Shown here: positions 11,440-60,069 of the stretch, one piece after another
Layout: the number at the start of each line of letters is the position of its first letter
Numbering within the stretch: the stretch's first letter is position 1
Source of the DNA: Chiloscyllium plagiosum
Taxonomy: Eukaryota
DNA: 64,000 nt
Direction: 5' to 3'
Assembly: GCF_004010195.1 (NCBI RefSeq)
Contig: NC_057749.1
Location: 7,213,416 to 7,277,415 of the forward strand
Position numbers and translations under genes: made by a program
Notes under the pieces: model-generated
Databases searched by the model: none
What the model was told of the DNA's origin: nothing
Seen by the model: the letters and a program-made list of their open reading frames with translations, nothing else

Positions 11440-11797
11440 ATGAGGAGGTAGACAAGGTCAGAAATCACATGACACTTGGTTTTGGTCCAACAGGTTTATT
11501 TGAAATCACAAGCTTTCGGAGCTGAATTTAGGTATGTAAACTGTCACAATGCAGCGCAATTTAATGGCCATTAAATGGCTCAATTAATTGAGCCCGACCA
11601 ATTCCCTTGTCATCTGCTATCTATTTATCTCCCTGCACAAAGGCACAGCTCGCTTGGTAATACAAAACGTGAGTTTTGCTATCAGAGTGTGCTATCAAAG
11701 GTTTATGCCCTGCATTCATCAGGACAAAGGGGCGAAAGGTTGTGATTTCAAACAAACCTGTTGGACTACAACCTGGTGTTGTGTGACTTTTGATTTT
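11440..11797. mobile_element. Fold-back PLE insertion enclosing a copy of local DNA
   Basis: Inverted arms ~11453-11518 and 11733-11797 of the family seen at 17.1k, 50.3k and 63.3k; centre 11522-11727 duplicates 12872-13078. Confidence 0.85.
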
Positions 11798-13039
11798 GGA
11801 TCTGTGTTCGACCAGAAACCCTAGGTCTCACTCCAACAGATTACAAGCACATCACTTGCCTATTCCTTGCGTTGCAAGGTGTGAGCGAAGAAGAACATTC
11901 TATTAGCCAGCATTTATATTATTCCGTTTATTAGTTTAGCTCGAATAGCGAGGGCTGATGGCATGATCAGCAGACGCAGTTCAGGAAAAAAAAGTGATCG
12001 AAACTGATGGAGCAACTGAAGAGAAATTAACATGCAGAGTGGAAATGATACAATTGCTCGAGTAGTATGGGGTTAATGAGTCTATCTGCCGATGTTAATT
12101 CGGGGCCCTTGCACTGCCAGTCTCAGTAATTCCTCAAAGCCAGCCTGTCTGATGATACTGTCAGGTCGTGGAGGCAAAAACACAAACCTACACATCTGTA
12201 TAGGTACGGTTGATAAGCAACGGAATCACACTGCAAAAAAAAAGGTCATTAATTACAATTTTTCTTATTCCAAGCAAGCCTGATATTAAATGTCTTTATT
12301 TAAACAATTGTAATTAGTGTACTCATTACTGCATTAATATTAATAGGAGTGCTAATACTGCATGCGTCCTACTCCGCTATCTCTCGAATCTTTTGATAGC
12401 AACCAGAACTTCCAAATTACTGGAAAGGTGTCTATTTCCCGCCCTGAATTCCTAGGTGTGCGTTTGTAATGCAAGCTGCCTAAGTAGGTTTGTCATTCTG
12501 TAATTGCAGCTTACCCCTCAAGAGGAGGGGCTCCATCCACACCGCTGACAGCCAGGTCTAATTAAAGCCGGGCAGGTTTGCAGAGGCAATGCTTCCATTA
12601 TAACTAGGGGACAGAGGCATTTGGAAGGTAGATCAGAAAACAAGAGGGGAATGTGTAATGTTAAAATGGGAGCCAAATTACTTCTGGTTTTACTATCCAT
12701 GAGCTTCTAATGTGAAGGCAACACTTTATCGTGAAACCCATGTGCAATGTCAAAGAAGAACAAGCAGATTATCAAAAATTCTGACGTACATGCAATTGCT
12801 TTCCACAGACCTTATTCCTGTTACGCTTTCAGTTAACACATACCATTGCAAATTGCTGTCAAAATTTCCCACTGAATTTAGCTATGTACACTGTCACAAT
12901 GCAGTGCAATTTATGGTCACTAAATGGCTCGATTAATTGAGCCCCAAACAACTCCCTTGTCATCTGCTATCTATTTATCGCCCTGCACAAAGACACAGCT
13001 CGCTTGGCAATACAAAACTTGAGTTTTGCCATCAAAGAG

Positions 13040-13300
13040 TATGTTATCAAACGTTTGTACCCTGCGTTCATCAGGACAGAAATACCAACTTTCAAAGGGA
13101 GTAACAATTTATATGCGTGAGCCTCAGGTGTTGATTGAATGGCAAGTTTACTCTGTTCAAGACAGTACCAGAAAACTATTGACCTCCATACTTTATATCA
13201 ATTCAAAACAAAGCACAATGCCTGGACGTGTTTTTTTTCTGCTTGTAAAGGAGAGGTCACTGCATTTGGTTATATGTAGCTTGTGGTAAGACTAAGTGAG
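13040..13300 (-). mobile_element. Old Penelope-like fragment
   Basis: ttcatcaggaca...tttcaaagggagtaacaatttata, homologous to 120-205 and 51935-52130. Confidence 0.55.
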
Positions 13301-14567: not shown

Positions 14568-14714
14568 TTTCCTATCTTCCTGGTGGTGGAAATTGAATAA
14601 AGATTCGTGCACTTTGTGTCTTTCACTGTGTCTCACACCTGCACACACACACCATGGGTGCTGGGGAAAAAGTAAGCACTACCGCACTTAGGTGGTAGTG
14701 TGGAGGTTAATAAA
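14568..14714 (+). mobile_element. Tx1-like (L1 clade) 3' end inserted in a LINE fragment
   Basis: AATAAA, (CA)n, hairpin cactaccg-cacttagg-tggtagtg, A tail; TSD aaaaacatccattcc (14553-14567, 14715-14729); homologous to 41290-41380. Confidence 0.7.
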
Positions 14715-24120: not shown

Positions 24121-26074
24121 ACACAACAAAGGTCAACATGCGAGATGAGAAGTTAAACTGAGGTTCCTCAGCCCTCTCAGAATGAAGTCAGGTGTCCCAT
24201 AATACTCTTTGAAGAAGAGGAGAGGAATTTTCTTTCTGGTGTGCAGGTCAATGACCAACCTTCCACCAACATTGCATAGAAAAAGGACAATCTCATTTGG
24301 TGGGTCAGACAATGAGATGTTGCAAACCTATTGTCTCTGCAATGCAATAGTGACTACCCCTCAAAAGGTATTTAATTGGCTGCAAAGAAATTTGGCATGA
24401 TGAAACTTGACTTCAGTGCTACAATATGATATCCTTTTATTCATTCACTTGTCGGATGGTAAATGCGGGGTTACAGAGGTAGGGTAGAGGCTGGGTCTGG
24501 GTCGGATGCTCTTCGGAGGGTCATTGCAGAATCAATGCACCGATTAGTCTTTTTCCGCACTGTAGGGATTCTACAATGGGGGTGTCACTGGCTGGGCCAG
24601 CATTTATTGTCTGTCTCCACTTGCCCTTGAGAAGGTGATCATGAGCTGCCTTATGGAACCGCTGCAGTCCATGTGTCAGACTCTTGGTACTCTCTAAATT
24701 AATCTGACAAGCCATTTAGTTAAGATGAGCATTAAAAGCAGTTAAGCTAAGAAGTATAAAAACTATAGTTGTTTAACCATTAAATCAAGGGGTTCATTGA
24801 AACGAAAGGTTAAGAACTCCATTTGAAAGCAGATATTGACATTATGTTTCACAATTCCAGCTGAAATGTGTTTTATATTAGTGAATCAAACCAAATCATT
24901 ATTAAACCTTCACTACTAGCAACATAATAACATGTGAATAAACCCATCTTGGTTAGAGGTTCATATCTTCCCCTGGGGTGAGATCCCAGTAAGGGAGTCA
25001 ATGTCATCAGAAAAACAGAAGGGGAATTTGAAAGACATCTATCATCAGGTTTCTATTTGAGCGGGTCAGTATTGACAACCGTTATTCTAGATGTGACAAA
25101 ACTTTTGATCAATGGGTATCATTAGTGAACTTCAATGTAAAGTTGATTCATCAATCAGCTAATGGGTAAACCATTGGGTCATCATTGATTACTTAACATT
25201 GCTTGAAGGTTCATCTTGTGTTCAGGGTGGAAGGTCAGAGAGGGGGCTACTGGAGGGGGAATATGAGAAGAAACGGAGTTGGGAGAGAGAATACAGAATG
25301 AAGTAAAACCACAATGAAAAAAGAGCTGTTCCACTGAGCTGACAGGTAAACAGAAGCGCAAAGTCTTGTGTCCCTTCAACATCATTAATTGATCATGACA
25401 CAGCAGCAAAAGACGGGGCAGCTATCTAAATCTGCTGGTGCATTCAGTGTCTCACAGAAGAAGAAAAATGAGGTCTTCGAAGACATTAAAGGCTGGTATC
25501 ATTCTCGTGTTGACACCAAGCTGTGTTTGAATCTTGTATGTTCCTTTTAAATGTTCAGAGAAGTCGATTTCAAAAGAGTATGATTCCTTTAATGAGCTGT
25601 GGCAGGTGCAAGCAATGTCACCAAAGCACAAGATTTAGTCATTGTTTTATTATTGGGATCTTGCTCTCTGCAAACTGGCTGCAGAGATAGAGGGAAAGGG
25701 TGAGTAATGGTATTGTGAAAGAGCTGGCACTCATTCAGTGGGCTGAATGGCCTTCCTCTGTGCTGTAATTTTCTAAGATTCTATCTTTCCAAGGGCAGCT
25801 ACACCTTGTTATCATAGCATCCCTACAGTATGAAAGCAAGCTATTCAGCCCCTTCAAAGACCATCCAACCTAAACCCAACCCCCTGCCCATAGACCTACA
25901 ACCCCGTATTTCCTTTGACCAATACACCTAGCCTGCGCAACCCTCAACAGCATGGGGCAATTTACAATCATTGAAGTATTCAGCGTGGAAACAGACACTT
26001 TGCTCCAATTCGTCCATGCCAACTAAGTTATGAACTACCCTCTATCCTTAGTAGTAGTGTAATTTGACTGGGAA

Positions 26075-26500
26075 ACCCACTTCCTGATCCCCCGAAGCCC
26101 ACCCACCACCTCCAAGGCACAAGTCAGAAATACAATGGAATATTCTCCAATATCCTGGATGAGTGCAGCTCCACACCATCCAGGACAGAGCAACCTGCTT
26201 GATTGGTATCTGATTGACATTCACCCTCTTCACCACCAACACAGTACCTTGGTGTGCACCATTTACATGATGGACTGTAACAATTGACTGAGGTTCCTCT
26301 GACAGCACAAAGGCATGGTACATGGGAACGCCACCAACTGCAAACTCCCCTCCAAGCCACATGCTATCTTGATTTGAAAACATAAGACCATTCCTTCAGC
26401 ATTGCTGGGTCAAATTCCTACCCCTGACAGCATTGTGGGCATAGTTTCACCATAATGAATGCAGCAGTTCAGGAAGACCAGGCATATGCATGTGGGGATA
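26075..26500 (+). mobile_element. CR1/L2-group LINE 3' fragment
   Basis: Homologous to 44310-44825 (caaggcacaagtcag...tggaata...ggatgagtgcagctcca). Confidence 0.7.
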
Positions 26501-26724: not shown

Positions 26725-26936
26725 CTGAGGAAGGGTCCTGACCCGAAACGTTGACCCTGCATCCTTAGTCATAGAGTAATTTCACTGGGAAACCCACTTC
26801 CTGACTCCCCAAAGCCCACCCACCACCTACAATGCACACGTTTCCTGGTCCTCCAATGCTGTCTGACCTGCTGTGCTTTTTCCAACTCTACATTTTATCG
26901 CTTCTGACTTTCAGCATCTGCAGACTTTACTATTTC
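26725..26936 (+). mobile_element. PLE terminal fragment with hammerhead and captured local DNA
   Basis: CTGAGGA-a-GGGTC-ct-GACCC-GAAAC-GTT; 26754-26841 copies 26037-26124; TSD caaaatagatagaagtc/caaaatagctaggagtc. Confidence 0.85.
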
Positions 26937-28321: not shown

Positions 28322-28604
28322 AAGAACTAGGAGCAGGAGTATGCCATCTTGCCCATCGAGCTGCTCCACCATTCAATAAGATCATGGCTGATCTTTATCA
28401 TGGACTCAGCTCCATTTACTTGCTTACTCACATAACCCTTAATTCCATTACTGTTCAAACATTGACCTATCGTTGCCTTAGAAACCTCCAATGAGGTATC
28501 CTCCACTGCTTCACTGGGCAGGGAATTCCACAGATTCACAACCCTTTGGGTGAAGAAGTTCTTCCTCAGCTCAGTCCTAAGTCTGCTTCCCCCTTATTTT
28601 GAGG
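28322..28604 (-). mobile_element. CR1 LINE 3' end
   Basis: Minus peptide NLWNSLPSEAVEDTSLEVSK. Confidence 0.85.
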
Positions 28605-30042
28605 CCAAGGCCCGTATTTCAGACAGATTGAAGTCTTCCCTCTCCCATTACCTTGCTATCGTAGGGTCTGCAGGTCAAAGACTGTCCCTGCTAACCCCAT
28701 CCCTAAATGTAGCACCAAAAGGACCAAAACTATGTTTAATAATGCAGTATGCTATGGGTCAATCAACTCGGTTTGTACCAGGGTAAGTTTGACTTCAAAG
28801 GCAAGCGGGTGGTCCATACAAAGTGTTCAGACTTTTGGGGCAAATGTTGGGGGTTGATCTATGAATGAGCTGTTTATGTAAAATGATTGATTTTTGTCCA
28901 AAAGTCATGGGTCAACTCTAACTTGAAATTGTCCACTATTCGATTATGGCACAGTATTGCAGTCCAGTCTTCAATGTATTCCCTCTTCCCAGAATTGGAG
29001 AGACATTAAACAAAGATCTTCTGCCCTCTCAAATGGACCTGAAGAATCCTATGATGTTATTTTGAAAACGAGCAAGGGATTAATCCCCTGGTGTCCTAGC
29101 CAATCATCATTTATTGATCAACTTGAAATGAGGGTTTCGTCATTGCTTTCTATGGGACCTTGCTGTGGGCAAGTTGGTTGCTACATTTCTTCTATTCGCT
29201 CGACTTCATTTATTGCAAAGCACCTGAGGCATTGAATGTTGCTGTTTAATAATACTTTAGTTCTATTCCTCTAATTCCTTGCTGGAAAAGGGATGAGATA
29301 AAACATCCTGCTGATATCATCATAAATCTGTGGGGGCAAGAGCGAATACAAGAGCTACAAAATCAAGTGGGGAGGGAATAAACCCTCTCACCAATGCTCT
29401 TGTGGAATTGAGGCATGTTTATAAAATCGATTTGCTGTGCCGAATAAAATCCAGCCACTTCCAAAATGGCTACTCAGAACTGAGTGGGGTGGAGTGGGGT
29501 GGGGGTCATCTCTGTGCGTGCTGCTCCACAAACTCAGGCTGTTCTCCAGCTGCAGTGCTGCCCTTTTCATGTAACCTCACACGTTATCTTGTGCAGAAAA
29601 GGTCTCTGCACTTTCAATCAGGCTCCCAGTGGAGAGGCGCCCGCAGCATTGAACCAGGCTAATTGGTGCCAATCTCGTTTGAGCTGAGAGGCCATGAATA
29701 TTATATGCATATGAGAAAGAGATGTCACATTAACGCAACACAGGAGGGTTCCTTCAGAGGTTACAGCTCGGCAAAGGCACCCTTGTCAGCATTTTGTACA
29801 AAAGCCATACAGTGCCTGTACTACATTCGACCAGGTCACACGGCGCCTTGGGAAAGTTCCTACTGGTTAAATGCCTCTCATTATGAATACATTTTTCATC
29901 ATTTCACTCCTCCATTCTCGTCAAGAGGATGCCAAGCTGAAAGGTAACTTGGGTCGACAGCTTGGTTCCTTTATTTTGCCGCAATCATTTAATTCCTGAT
30001 TGTTTCAAAACAGCTCTCCACCATTTCAATCAAGATGTACAG

Positions 30043-30421: not shown

Positions 30422-30956
30422 CTTCAAAAACCCCTCAGGTCAGGGTGCTTTGACATGACCCAAGGAGACCAACTTGCGCACAGCAAGGTCCCATACAAAG
30501 CAATGACCAAACACACATTTCAAGTTGATCAATAAATCTTGGCCTCCTGGCCTCCTCACCCCAACAACTAACAGCCTTATATCAAAACCATGAAATTCAA
30601 GGCTCCAATTCCTAATAAACTTTCTGTCCTCCAACTGCCAGAAAAATGGAGACAACATGTCGAATAAACCAAATACTCAGTATTTGATCAAAGAATTTCT
30701 CATTTCTTCTGCTTGTGAAGAAAATCTGGAGATTTACATAATTTCTCTGGAATTTTCTTCAATTCACAAGGGTTTGCAACCATCTCATAGTGAAATTGCA
30801 GTGAACATTCAGAAGAAATGCCTATGGAAAGCCTCTCCCAAATGCATACCCTATTCCTCCTTCTCATACTGCTATCCTATTGAAGTCAAAAAGCCAACAC
30901 CTTATAGTCAACTTCTACTCATTCACTGATTAGAAACTGAAAGAACTGCTGTAAAT

Positions 30957-41020: not shown

Positions 41021-41616
41021 TGTAGTGATTGGAACCAGGGCCAGGTGATCTCAGTGACTGTAAGATCCTTGATTGGGGTTGTTAACCTGGTTCAATCAGG
41101 GAGCCCTGGCTAACAGATATGAACAGGATATTAAAACTCTGGAGTTGTTCAGGGAGAGGTGGGTGCCGCAGGGAGTGGAGTGCATTATTTCCCCCTCCAA
41201 CTCTATTTTGATTTAATCCCTGTCCTCCCCTTCACTGTTTGATCACACAGCATTTGATGTGAAGGGCACTGCTTGTCACTGGCCACTCGGGTGTTTTCTT
41301 TCTTCGTGGTGGTGGAAATTTGAATAAAGATTTGTGTACCTTGTGTCTTTCACTTTGTCTCACACCTGCACACACACACAAAAAAAATGAACAGGATATT
41401 TACCACAGTGAAACGGTAGTGTGGAAAAAAAAAACAGGAATGTCAAAAGAAGAGATATAAGAGAAATAAAAAAAGTTTTAAAAAAAAACAGATTATTCAG
41501 AAGGTCTCCTTAGTCTCGGGACTGGCTTTGAACTAGCTGCTCAGAGTCCATGCACTATGCACATTAAATAAAGGGTGACTTATTGATGGGATGCCAGCCT
41601 TTGTGCTGTTATTTCA
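41021..41616 (+). mobile_element. Gypsy-type solo LTR with nested insertions
   Basis: TGTAGTG...ATTTCA termini; AATAAA at ~41567; lies in a CT tract, so TSD is ambiguous. Confidence 0.7.
41133..41386 (+). mobile_element. Tx1-like non-LTR retrotransposon 3' end
   Basis: ORF end TLELFRERWVPQGVECIISPSNSILI* (41136-41216), AATAAA, A tail, exact TSD atgaacaggatatt (41119-41132, 41387-41400). Confidence 0.75.
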
Positions 41617-53584: not shown

Positions 53585-54295
53585 AGATGTAGGTTTGCTC
53601 GCTGAGCTGGGAGATTCATTTTCAGATGTTTCATCACCATACTAGGTAATTTTCGCAAGGTTTGTGAAGGTTTGCAGCTCAGATTGAGGTTTAGGGTGTA
53701 GGTTTGCTTGCTAAGCTAGCCAGGTAATGAAACGTCTGGATATCAAACCTACAGCTCAGTGAGCAACCTACACCTGATACTAGGTAATATCTTCAGTGAG
53801 CCTCCGGCTGAAGCAGTGGTGGTGAAGCCCGCTTTCTATTTATATGTTTGGGTTTTCTCGGGTCGGTGATGTCATTTCCTTTGGTGGTGTCATTTCCGAT
53901 TGTGATGTCACTTCCGGTTCTTTTTCTTGGGGGTGGTAAATGGGATCCAAGTCAATGTATTTGTTGATAGAGTTCCTGTTGGAATGCCATGCTTCTAGGA
54001 ATTTTCATGCATGTCTCTGGCTCGTCCTAGGATGGATGAGTTGTCCCAGTCAAAGTGGTATCCTTTCTCATCCGTATGTAAGGATACTAGTGAGGGTGGG
54101 TCATGTCTTTTTGTGGCTAGTTGATGTTCATGTATCCTGCTGGCTGGTTTTCTGCCCGTTTGTCCGATGTAGTGTTTGTCACAGTTCTTGCAAAGTATTT
54201 TGTAAATGACATTAGTTTTGCTTGTTGTCTGTATTGGGTCTTTCAAGTTCATTAGCTGCTGTTTTAGTATGTTGGTGGGTTTGTGGGCTATCATA
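53585..54295 (-). mobile_element. Penelope/Poseidon-type retroelement 3' part (GIY-YIG endonuclease pseudogene)
   Basis: NVIYKILCKNCDKHYIGQTGRKPASRIHEH; TSD cttaacccct (53575-53584, 54299-54308); inserted in a family C SINE. Confidence 0.92.
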
Positions 54296-54527
54296 ACTCT
54301 TAACCCCTTTCTGAAATGGTCCAAGCAACCATTAAGTTCAAGAGCAATTGGAGGTCGGCAGGAATTGCTGAGCTGGCCAGAAGCACCCACAACCAGTGAG
54401 ATCATAAAGAAAAAAGAAACATTAGGAGCTATTGAGGCAGGTGATAAAAAGCTTGGTCAAGGAGGAAGATATAAGGAGTAACGTAAAGACTGAAAATCAC
54501 TTGTTTCCAAGACAGTGCGTAACAATC

Positions 54528-56716: not shown

Positions 56717-58103
56717 AATACAAAAAAAGATGGGAACCTCAAGAAAGCAATGCGACCCTCTGTTGAACATACAAATGAGGCTGAACGTCTATCCCAGGCA
56801 GCTGACAGCAACTCTGAACATCTGCACAACCTGCAGGAGGGTCAGATATCTACTCGGAGGACCCTCGCCCACCCTAGTCTGCACCAATTTCATGCAGAGA
56901 AACTTCAAACAGAAGGCATTCGAGGAAAAGAAAGCTTTACACATCGTTACCCTCTCAGCAAGCTCTTCACCTTTGAAGTAGACGAGAATTTATTAACTAC
57001 TAGGAACTTCCATTGGGCCCATATGACTGCGCTCTCTCCTTATTTCATGCAGTGTCAATCATTGCCTGTCTAACTTCAAGAGCTGCGAGTTAACAGCACT
57101 GTCTCTGACCTGATCTGACAGCAGGGAGATTTATTTTTAAAAATCCACTGAATGCACCTGACCATTATACTATATTTTGAGATCATTCTGTCTAGTGCTG
57201 GTGCTTCTGGGTAGATGTTTTTCTTTTATTCTTTGTGTTGTTTGCTTGGCTTTCCCGTGGAATTTTGCTATCAGTTCAGAGAAGGGACTTTGGACCTTAT
57301 CCATATGGATATATGATATAAACAGCATACAGGCAGGAGTACTGAAAACAAGAGAAGATCTCCAGCCAGACAGATTCTTCAGCACTCCCAGAGTGTGTTG
57401 GGGTGTTTAAATGAGCAACTAACTTTCATTAAACCAGTGCTCCAAGAAACTCACTCAGCACTGACTTCTCTACTTAAGTATGTACAGAGAAGCAGTAGGT
57501 GTTGGAGGAAGAAGAAAATTGTTCTGACTATCTTCTCAGAGGCTTGAAATTCTGCAGCTCTTGATGTTGCATATTCTTTTGTGCGTTGGTCCTAAGTTTG
57601 CTGGAAAATAAAGGCAACTCCATGCGCATTCCATTATTATTGTGTATAATTGGCCAGTTTATTCAGGCATAGGAGGGATATGTCATTTGTTTGTGCATTG
57701 CTATATCTTGCTGAATGACTTATACCATTTCCAGTTCGTAACTCAATGAATACAACAAGGCATGATCTATGCTACTTAGGCACAGAGACTAAGAGGTCCC
57801 AGTTAGATACCTGGTTTGTTTTAAGTTATTGGACTCAGGAAAGAAATGTTGTTTGCTTTTATGTAAAAGCTTTCATGATTGCAAGATGCGCCAAAGTGCT
57901 TTACAACTAATGAGCTGCAGTCCTGAAATGCATTGACTGTTGTAGGAACCATCGAGGCTAACTTATACACAGAAAGATCCCATAAAACAACTGTTTTGAT
58001 CCAGTCGTGAACCGTTAGCTTTTTAAAAATATTCAACACTTTGTTTTAATGAATAGAGCTAAAACACAATATTTCACTTCTTCATAAAAAAAATTGTAAA
58101 TAA

Positions 58104-58268
58104 AAGATAATGTTCATTAGAATTCAATTGCACTTAAATTACAGATGGCTTGTGCTTCTGCTTTCAGCTGTGGGAATCCTTTGTGATACCTATAGAGCTC
58201 TTCAGACAAATGCAATCAGTTCATCCACAATACAGTGATTACTTTACAATAATTTATTGAAAGTAACT
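58104..58268 (-). repeat. Inverted local duplicate of 59674-59834, flanked by a 13-bp direct repeat
   Basis: About 90% identity over ~160 bp by manual alignment; aaattgtaaataa at 58091-58103 and 58269-58281. Confidence 0.9.
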
Positions 58269-59202
58269 AAATTGTAAATAAGGAACAAAACATGCACTGG
58301 TAATCTATTAATATGGTTAATAACTATATTTTGCACAGTAAGGTACATTTATCATTTATTTTAGCTGAATTTTCTAAGCAAACTATAAACCATGCAATAG
58401 CCAAATCACAAGTAAAGCTTCTCCCAACAAACACCCATATAAATTGAAACTAGAGAGTTTTTCTAAGCTCCACCCATCTCCATGACAACACAATATGCTC
58501 TGGGCTGACTTTCAGGTTAATTATCCCCCACTTATAATTTCTTCTTTGATCCGATGAAGTCAAAAGTCTTCATAACCTTTCAGGATTTACTGTCTTTACC
58601 TCACAAAAGAAAAAAAAAATCGGCGTACTATATTTATTTGCATGTATAGAACATGCCACATCTCTGATTCTTGAGCTAAGGAAACTCTCCTGCTCTTTCA
58701 TAGCTCTATCTTTCGGTAAACCTCTCAGTCCAAATGTTTAAGAATTATGAGTTCCAAGTTTGCTTTCATTGCAGTCTCGACATGGTTAATTCCTAAAACT
58801 AGGTTTATGCTAAACACTTGAATCCTGCCTGAGGTATTCATAACAAAGCAATGAGCAAACGATCTTTCTTTTTGAAATTATTGAGGTATTAAACGGGATA
58901 TCGAGGGGAGAATATTTGGCGCTTTGAAATATAGTCCACAAAGATGTTTTTCATTTTTTCTGGGAGGTAGACTTTGAAATAGTGTCATGAAATCTTTTAC
59001 ATACATTTGAGGTGATAGATGGGCCTTGACGTGAGGCCTGATCCAGGAGACAACATCTTTAACAGAGTAGCACTCCCTCGGGACTGCACCACGTCTTAGG
59101 GGTTTTGCTGCTCAAGTGTCAAGAAGTGGGTCTTAGAGCCATGATCTTCAGTTTCAGAGGTGAGAGTGCTACCCATTAAGTCATAGCAAACAATGGAGGA
59201 AC

Positions 59203-59265
59203 GTACAAAGTTAAGAATCACCCAACTTTGTACACCCCAGTCCAGCACCGACATCTTCAAATCAT
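59203..59265. mobile_element. Very short fold-back PLE insertion
   Basis: gtacaaagtt...aactttgtac then PLE terminus; flanked by aatggaggaa repeats. Confidence 0.7.
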
Positions 59266-60069
59266 GACTATAATGGAGGAATGGTTCGAGTTTCGCAATG
59301 GCAACTGGGAGAGTTGGAATCCAGTTACATGTCTGGAATTGAAAACTAGTTTCAATAATGGTGACCACCGCTCATTATCAAAGTCTATTTGCCCTTTGGA
59401 GAGTAAATCTGCCATCTTTCCCCAGTCCGGACTACATGTGACTCCAGACCCATAGCAATGCTGTTGACTCTTAACCACCCTCTGAAATGGCTCATCTATT
59501 CAATTAGGGATGGGTCACAAATTCTGGCCTTGCCCACTGATGCCCATATCCTATGAAAGGATTTATTACAAAAGTGAGGGGGGGAGGGGAGCGGGGTCAG
59601 TGTGGGGCTGTGAGCTCTCCTTTAAGCAGATGAGAAACGTTAGCTCTCAGGTTGCCACCAACATTATTCAAACACTTGCAATAAATTGTCGTAAAATAAC
59701 CACTGTACTGTGGATGAACTGATTGCATTTTTCTGAAGGGCTCAATAGGTATCGCAAAGGATTCCCACAGCTGAAAGCAGTAGCACAAGCCATCTGTAAT
59801 TTAAGTACAATTGAATTCTAACCAACATCGTCTTCTTAAAATTAAGCTAATCTGATTGGGTGTCTCTGGCCTGCTTCAATTGTTTTCCACTGCAGTGAGA
59901 ATTCCAATAAACACATACTCCCTCCACAATTTATCAGCTTTGAATTGAATGAGCTCAAGGTGTTGATAGGCCTAATGTGGTGCATTCATTTGCTTCAAGT
60001 CAATGAAACTATCTGACAACCACAAACCTAAATTACCTCATCTCTCTGGAGCCTGCCTTAGTTGCTCTT

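Follow-up and report, generated by a model that had tools for sequence, protein, structure and literature searches.

The DNA analysed here, a 64,000-nucleotide stretch of the Chiloscyllium plagiosum genome (the window), is repeat-rich and non-coding, with one gap of 416 N. A Pfam scan of 225 open reading frames of at least 55 amino acids (224 outside the window repeats, and one in the spacer of the inverted pair described below) found no host exon, at a length limit that would miss exons shorter than 55 amino acids. The two hits that it gave, both below the curated cut-offs, belong to mobile-element families: GIY-YIG (53998-54456, E 7e-4) and HTH_Tnp_Tc3_2 (28330-28593, E 0.009). Rfam gave no matches over the whole window at the gathering threshold.

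The feature under study is an inverted pair of segments: 58104-58264 (left copy, minus strand) aligns without gaps to the reverse complement of 59674-59834 (right copy, plus strand), with 16 mismatches in 161 nt (90% identity; 11 transitions and 5 transversions) and 1409 nt between the arms. The exact 13-mer AAATTGTAAATAA, 92% AT, occurs exactly twice in the window, both times on the plus strand: at 58091-58103 (TSD1, the original target) and at 58269-58281 (TSD2), the latter separated from the left copy by four filler bases (AACT, 58265-58268, plus strand) which are unlike both the continuation of the right copy and the target. The longest exact direct repeat lying no more than 10 nt from both interval ends was 13 bp for the left copy and 8 bp or less in all 2970 random 161-bp placements (188 of them AT-rich), indicating that the twin 13-mers are far above chance; the same score was 4 for the right copy and 6 for the whole 1.7-kb unit, both at background level. 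Neither insert end has a poly(A) of 5 bases or longer, only the four filler bases being present there, two of them A; a decayed short tail may lie behind these four bases. A run of eight A (58086-58093, plus strand) overlaps the beginning of TSD1. Three observations of the first-pass annotation agree with these counts: an inverted duplicate of about 160 bp with about 16 mismatches, an exact repeat at the left copy only, and the lack of a poly(A) tail.

No clear exact microhomology was found at either junction of the left copy. Close to one end of the right copy, 59683-59699 (plus strand) contains the whole 13-bp target with one 4-nt gap, a possible tethering or snap-back microhomology. This gapped match, scored in a way picked after the match was seen, is equalled by 0.8%, 4.5% and 0.3% of three null sets, and its exact 7-nt core is not significant (10-36% in the null sets); as a junction detail, the likeness of the two sequences is suggestive only. 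A snap-back hairpin at the right junction is at most a conceivable detail: when today's junction sequence is folded as DNA, the structure of lowest energy leaves the insert end unpaired with TSD2.

The copy number of both arms was assessed by matching contigs or reads to 57650-60050 at 82% likeness, in 4 of the 24 listed runs: X1 (own species, 84% of the run read), X9 (relative B, 64%) and X17 (relative C, all of it), which are DNA runs searched as filtered contigs (the filter removes some records), and X21, a raw single-cell RNA run. Copies of less than 82% identity fall below the detection of the contig matching. Depth over the left arm (58136-58297) was 20.8 in X1, 12.1 in X9 and 4.7 in X17, and over the right arm (59675-59836) 20.8, 12.2 and 5.5, in every case the depth of the single contig spanning the arm; no extra contigs covered either arm in these filtered runs, and the window holds no third copy of either. 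Depth increased about 2- to 7-fold over the neighbouring old repeats (57812-57973, 58460-58621 and 58946-59026) and by orders of magnitude over 59189-59593, indicating that the matching is able to detect dispersed families. The left-junction bin (58055-58135) showed a small depth excess in X9 (17.2). The X1 contigs differ from the locus by 2 substitutions in 1596 bases (left contig) and by none (right contig); X1 may be the source sample of the assembly, and consequently the two related species provide the independent check. On the question of copy number, raised in the first-pass annotation, the outcome is single-contig depth over both arms in three DNA runs at 82% likeness.

Relatives B and C are about 3.7% divergent from the window and both carry the insert of the left copy. 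The first-pass annotation expected outgroups with a single 13-mer and no insert; there is no such empty site among these two genomes, both of which share the insertion. All 28 gap letters in the left contig of B lie outside the TSDs and the insert, one of them being an extra base just before the A-run; the run also carries a single substitution in B. Among the 38 listed of the 58 substitutions of this contig, two fall in the left copy (58152 and 58207, B carrying the base of the right copy at the latter) and none in TSD1, TSD2 or the filler. In C, depth at 58055-58135 is 4.3 versus 4.74, indicating that some bases are missing there, possibly within TSD1. The divergence of the pair (K2P 0.108) compared with that between C. 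plagiosum and B (K2P 0.037) makes the event about 3-6 times older than the split from B, the range corresponding to change in both copies versus change in the acceptor alone. An old, fixed, one-off insertion, predating the split from B and C, is the supported reading of the left copy.

Because both relatives carry the insert, the direction of copying rests on the TSD, on CpG polarity and on constraint. The right copy retains three CpG, whereas the left copy has lost them all, and 4 of the 16 mismatches are CpG decays, all of them in the left copy (the polarity, at three sites, has a two-sided p of 0.25 taken alone). Since the TSD position and the CpG polarity agree, the right copy, a single-copy non-coding segment without a full-length open frame in any of the six frames, is likely the donor, and the left copy the acceptor.

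The donor lies in a block of low divergence spanning at least 59446-60050, a candidate constrained non-coding element. The right contig of B (59431-60050) has 4 substitutions in 620 bases versus 58 in 1595 in the left contig, and that of C (59446-60050) has 4 in 605 versus 59 in 1604, with 7 in 213 (B) and 9 in 208 (C) in the intermediate stretch. The substitution rate of the block is thus about 5.5-fold lower (right versus left, Fisher p about 4e-5 for each relative; right versus middle, p 0.008 for B and 0.001 for C), in two comparisons which are not independent, as both contain the C. plagiosum lineage. The word share predicted by two rates is 0.42 (B) and 0.41 (C), and by one rate 0.32 (B) and 0.31 (C); the shares observed (0.38-0.41 in 8 runs of B, 0.38 in 4 runs of C) are nearer to the two-rate prediction. 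The gap letters of the right contigs (21 in B, 15 in C) derive from few events, and the signal is weaker when every gap letter is counted as a difference (p = 0.23 for B, p = 0.03 for C). Judging from these substitution counts, the donor block is probably under purifying selection as a non-coding element; a mutation cold spot or introgression may alternatively lie behind the low divergence. A 19-base donor motif searched for deep conservation in metagenome contigs was found at five loci, all five matching the motif alone. A coding exon (159 bp between a minus-strand AG and GT) was discarded, with stops in all six frames.

The focal pair is one of five two-copy pairs in the window (at least 50 bp, at least 80% identity, no third window copy), four of which lie within 1.5 kb; this short spacing (p about 2e-5 versus uniform placement) indicates that local copying operates in this genome. 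The genome-wide copy check covers the focal pair, the other local pairs being two-copy within the window. With 4 local pairs in the 64 kb of the window, their density amounts to about 60 per Mb (Poisson 95% range 17-161), tens of times or more above the 0.08-0.65 duplications per Mb of transposable element (TE) DNA given in Table 3 of Pace, Sen, Batzer and Feschotte (2009, PMC2671141), a figure ascertained differently and not to be compared like for like.

The account to which we give most credence, as a reasonably probable one, is that DNA repair produced the left copy by locally duplicating part of a probably constrained element. To judge from the TSD, the DNA would have broken at the AT-rich 13-mer, with a stagger of about 13 nt between the ends (a replication-fork template switch returning 13 nt upstream would give an identical product). 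One 3' end would then have invaded or annealed to duplex 1.4-1.7 kb away, where a host polymerase would have copied 161 nt of the opposite strand; the inverted product is observed in the sequence, and the enzymatic route would be synthesis-dependent strand annealing (SDSA) or polymerase-theta-like. The new strand would next have been freed, extended with four filler bases and joined to the other end, fill-in duplicating the 13-mer; the product is again observed, and the order of these events is presumed. The copy would have been fixed before the split from B and C and then decayed with loss of CpG, the donor staying nearly unchanged because it lies inside a probably constrained element. The left copy can be explained without an element, and nothing points to a function of the pair. 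Among the findings that count against a repair duplication, both relatives carry the insert, the junctions show no clear exact microhomology, a TSD is a minority outcome in such duplications (6 of 39, PMC2671141), and a perfect 13-bp TSD pair would survive with a probability of only 5-12% if all 16 changes occurred in the acceptor (24% if shared equally).

The size, distance, filler, TSD and missing tail of the left copy fit the proximal repair-mediated duplications of Pace et al., which, in the text of the survey available to us, average 162 bp with a distance peak near 1.2 kb, have poly(A) in none of 39 proximal cases, show TSDs of 4-21 nt and commonly carry fillers; conserved segments are present in 82 of 824 donors, and the examples include one exon copied in inverted orientation. 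The focal duplicate is likewise present in two copies only, is 161 bp long, inverted and 1.4 kb from its donor, which is possibly conserved, and has a filler, no poly(A) and a TSD within the 4-21 nt range. The survey took duplications of at least 50 bp with a donor more than 50 bp and less than 5 kb away on the same chromosome, one other genomic copy, no poly(A/T) tract of at least 5 bases at an insert end and a repair signature at the junctions; here the length is 161 bp and the distance 1409 bp, both arms have single-contig depth (X1, X9 and X17, at 82% likeness), and the junction carries the 4-base filler, the microhomology being merely suggestive. The duplications of the survey were found as interruptions of annotated TEs, many with an empty-site check, whereas the focal acceptor lies in unique DNA; the combination of TSD and filler without deletion or clear microhomology has no counterpart among the 39 cases as tabulated in the available text (no 'Filler+TSD', two 'MH+TSD+Filler'); and no cartilaginous fish figures among the species which that text names.

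Other described systems resemble the locus in part. The 'doublets' of Thomas et al. (cited via PMC2671141) are also short, unique, local duplications ascribed to imperfect break repair, but near-identical and shorter than 100 bp, whereas the focal duplicate is 161 bp long and 10% diverged. Templated sequence insertion polymorphisms (TSIP; Onozawa and Aplan 2016, PMC5110952) are likewise genomic patches copied into a break, and the focal TSD is as in class 1, the non-templated bases and lack of tail as in class 2; as far as the accessible description goes, TSIP donors are distant, class 1 requires poly(A), a polyadenylation signal and a TTTT/A site, and class 2 has no TSDs, so that the locus fits neither class fully. 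Captures by Penelope-like elements (PLEs; Arkhipova 2013, PMC3846280) also put DNA foreign to the element between TSDs of comparable length (8-10 bp), but frame it with pLTRs, which the focal insert lacks. The titles and abstract openings returned by a literature search contained no report of repair-mediated or Penelope-driven local duplication in sharks. The event class is already described; what is new here is the donor's low-divergence block and the CpG asymmetry between the copies. The first-pass annotation was silent on the AACT filler, on the low-divergence block and on the prior description of this event class. The locus is most likely a clean case of a repair scar of known type, rather than a new element.

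The first-pass annotation proposed a staggered endonuclease cut filled from a nearby template, with a TSD of the length of the local PLE insertions; the one-off insertion from a local template is supported. We consider it rather unlikely, if still worth weighing, that the GIY-YIG endonuclease of a PLE made the cut, that the cDNA of the element failed to be added or disappeared again, and that the gap was wholly filled from nearby DNA or nascent RNA; that the filling was done by the reverse transcriptase of the element or by host repair is held at the same low level. The TSDs of PLE-like segments in the window measure 12-15 bp (6 of 27 segments have a plausible TSD), and the 13 bp of the focal TSD agree with the match in length noted in the first-pass annotation; this length is not diagnostic, being equally that of L1 TSDs (12-18 bp, PMC11702581) and of repair duplications (4-21 nt). 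One more PLE-like segment has an 8-bp TSD hit, which is chance-like. The acceptors of two of the four local duplicates lie inside Penelope minis (11522-11726 and 26754-26841), compared with about 7.5% PLE-like cover (p about 0.03; 0.05 if the cover is taken as 10%), whereas a third (30468-30537) is 31 bp outside the TSD of a PLE, the focal acceptor has no element sequence, and insertions of the type surveyed by Pace et al. are in any case easiest to recognise in old repeats. In purified form, the PLE protein of an anole cleaves both strands of AT-rich DNA at ATT motifs and extends them (PMC11167929), and breaks made by L1 yield templated insertions and junctions without element sequence (PMC11702581); insertion by the anole enzyme required the element's own RNA, from the first 172 nt of the ORF (PMC11167929), and rotifer PLE captures, as described in the available text, retain pLTRs around the captured DNA (PMC3846280). 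No pLTR or hammerhead framing of the focal insert was found in comparison with 11 PLE-like pieces of the window, the focal TSD is 92% AT versus 46-69% for the local PLE TSDs, and the junctions are without PLE sequence: the best match, 9 nt between an insert end and a PLE piece, was rejected as chance (E 0.38-1.2).

A broader proposal, that PLEs in this lineage drive short local duplication genome-wide through staggered cuts often filled partly or wholly from about 1 kb away, is doubtful; so is its extension, in which the fills would include conserved regulatory pieces and the series would run up to the focal case as its extreme without any element.

An improbable explanation is target-primed reverse transcription of a local RNA by an L1/Tx1-type element, with a T/AAAA cut and a TSD of 17-18 bp. 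On that reading, equally improbable, the filler would be a decayed A-run or short tail (or the decayed front of a longer TSD2), and the insert a class-1 TSIP-like or tailless retrocopy beside its source. The 8-A run opens the target, extension of the TSD into it costs about 2 substitutions and 1 gap, the run is mutable in B, and the minus-strand segment begins right after AG and ends on GT (each about 5-7% by chance). The low survival odds of a perfect 13-bp pair, which a longer, decayed TSD would ease, give some weight to this reading of the A-run, and a 5'-TTTT/A-3' site would agree with the locus only under a TSD of 17-18 bp in which the A-run has decayed. On the other side, the 10-40 A tail and, in that orientation, the upstream AATAAA that characterise class 1 in the available text (PMC5110952) are both missing, as is the tail in all 39 proximal duplications of PMC2671141; random retrocopies are unlikely to land only 1.4 kb from their source; and the donor has no RNA reads in one single-cell run, about 2% of which was searched.

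It is very improbable that the pair has been kept as an RNA duplex, a substrate for A-to-I editing or back-splicing, or that the acceptor is a retained enhancer fragment. As RNA, the arms form Watson-Crick pairs at 145 of 161 positions on either strand, in duplexes of -226 and -239 kcal/mol, as any inverted duplicate would pair; the window holds 15 other inverted pairs (at least 70 bp, no more than 5 kb from each other), and three of the five nearby ones that were folded form stronger duplexes. In B the acceptor has two listed substitutions where about 6 would be expected, a borderline deficit (Poisson p 0.05, Fisher p 0.12); the acceptor would have a lower mutation rate as no CpG is left there, and differs from the donor at 10% of positions. 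No reads were found on either arm among 12.96 million records of X21 (a shallow sample, about 2% of one run); the 402 records which matched 57650-60050 were all partial, none at 99% or more. This is weak evidence for little transcription of the pair, and the editing or back-splicing substrate suggested in the first-pass annotation finds no backing in it.

Least credible of all is that the copies come from a dispersed repeat family or form the two terminal inverted repeats (TIRs) of a 1.7-kb DNA transposon, the two readings named in the first-pass annotation as its own refutation: inverted 161-bp arms would suit TIRs, and family members below 82% identity would escape the contig matching, but both are largely removed by the single-contig depth that three DNA runs show over each arm, by the lack of a third copy within the window, by the absence of an outer TSD around the 1.7-kb unit (best 6 bp, background) and by the absence of a transposase family among the spacer ORFs scanned, and the 13-bp repeat brackets one arm only.

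Taken alone, the locus is an ordinary old repair scar, and a clean example of one in a lineage outside the 2009 survey. If the density of four pairs in the window, two of them inside Penelope copies, holds genome-wide, Penelope activity would be tied to short local duplication and the question of the cutter would become directly testable; a Penelope engine of this kind, if true, would offer a way for pieces of enhancers to be copied next to the originals. The probably constrained donor beside a decaying copy flags the stretch at about 59446-60050 as a candidate regulatory element that had not been annotated before.

The five pairs in the window that share at least 50 bp at 80% identity or more, with no third copy there, are mostly local, the copies being separated by 630-1410 bp in four of them. 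These four close pairs correspond to a density of about 60 per Mb over the whole 64-kb window, far exceeding the published densities of repair duplications (0.08-0.65 per Mb of TE DNA; Pace 2009, PMC2671141), although the two values were ascertained differently.

Several local duplicates were found in or beside short Penelope-like elements (minis). One is a direct 205-bp pair (11522-11726 and 12872-13078; 88% identity, spacing 1146 bp), whose acceptor, or pasted copy, is located between the two arms of the mini at 11447-11798. Its donor, the source copy, lies in AT-rich DNA rich in homeobox motifs (about 12200-13100), a region which looks like a candidate conserved element; a stretch at the donor end resembles a hammerhead core in reverse complement. 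A direct 88-bp duplicate (26037-26124 and 26754-26841; 86% identity) is within a mini flanked by a 12-bp target site duplication (TSD) with one mismatch. The third, an inverted 70-bp pair (29109-29178 and 30468-30537; 93% identity, spacing 1290 bp), has its second copy outside a mini, beginning 31 bp past the TSD of that element; no TSD of at least 6 bp was found around this copy.

Other repeats were also present. An 86-bp pair of 91% identity (14568-14652 and 41294-41379, 26.6 kb apart), which we take to be LTR-like in appearance, probably represents fragments of a dispersed repeat. The Penelope-like remnant at 53716-54456 has terminal pieces in inverted orientation; its match to GIY-YIG is weak, with E 7e-4, and does not reach the Pfam cut-off. 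The spacer separating the focal copies, the 161-bp inverted duplicate, harbours a short Penelope-like insertion (about 59202-59269, within 59190-59281; 12-bp TSD, one mismatch) nested in an older repeat. A 19-bp inverted match (57860-57878 and 58985-59003; 95% identity) joins two old repeat remnants, with raised contig depth over both.

Around the focal donor, substitutions relative to the related species B and C were about 5.5-fold fewer across a block spanning at least 59446-60050, its right limit falling beyond the compared stretch. Judged by this low divergence, the block is a candidate unannotated conserved element.
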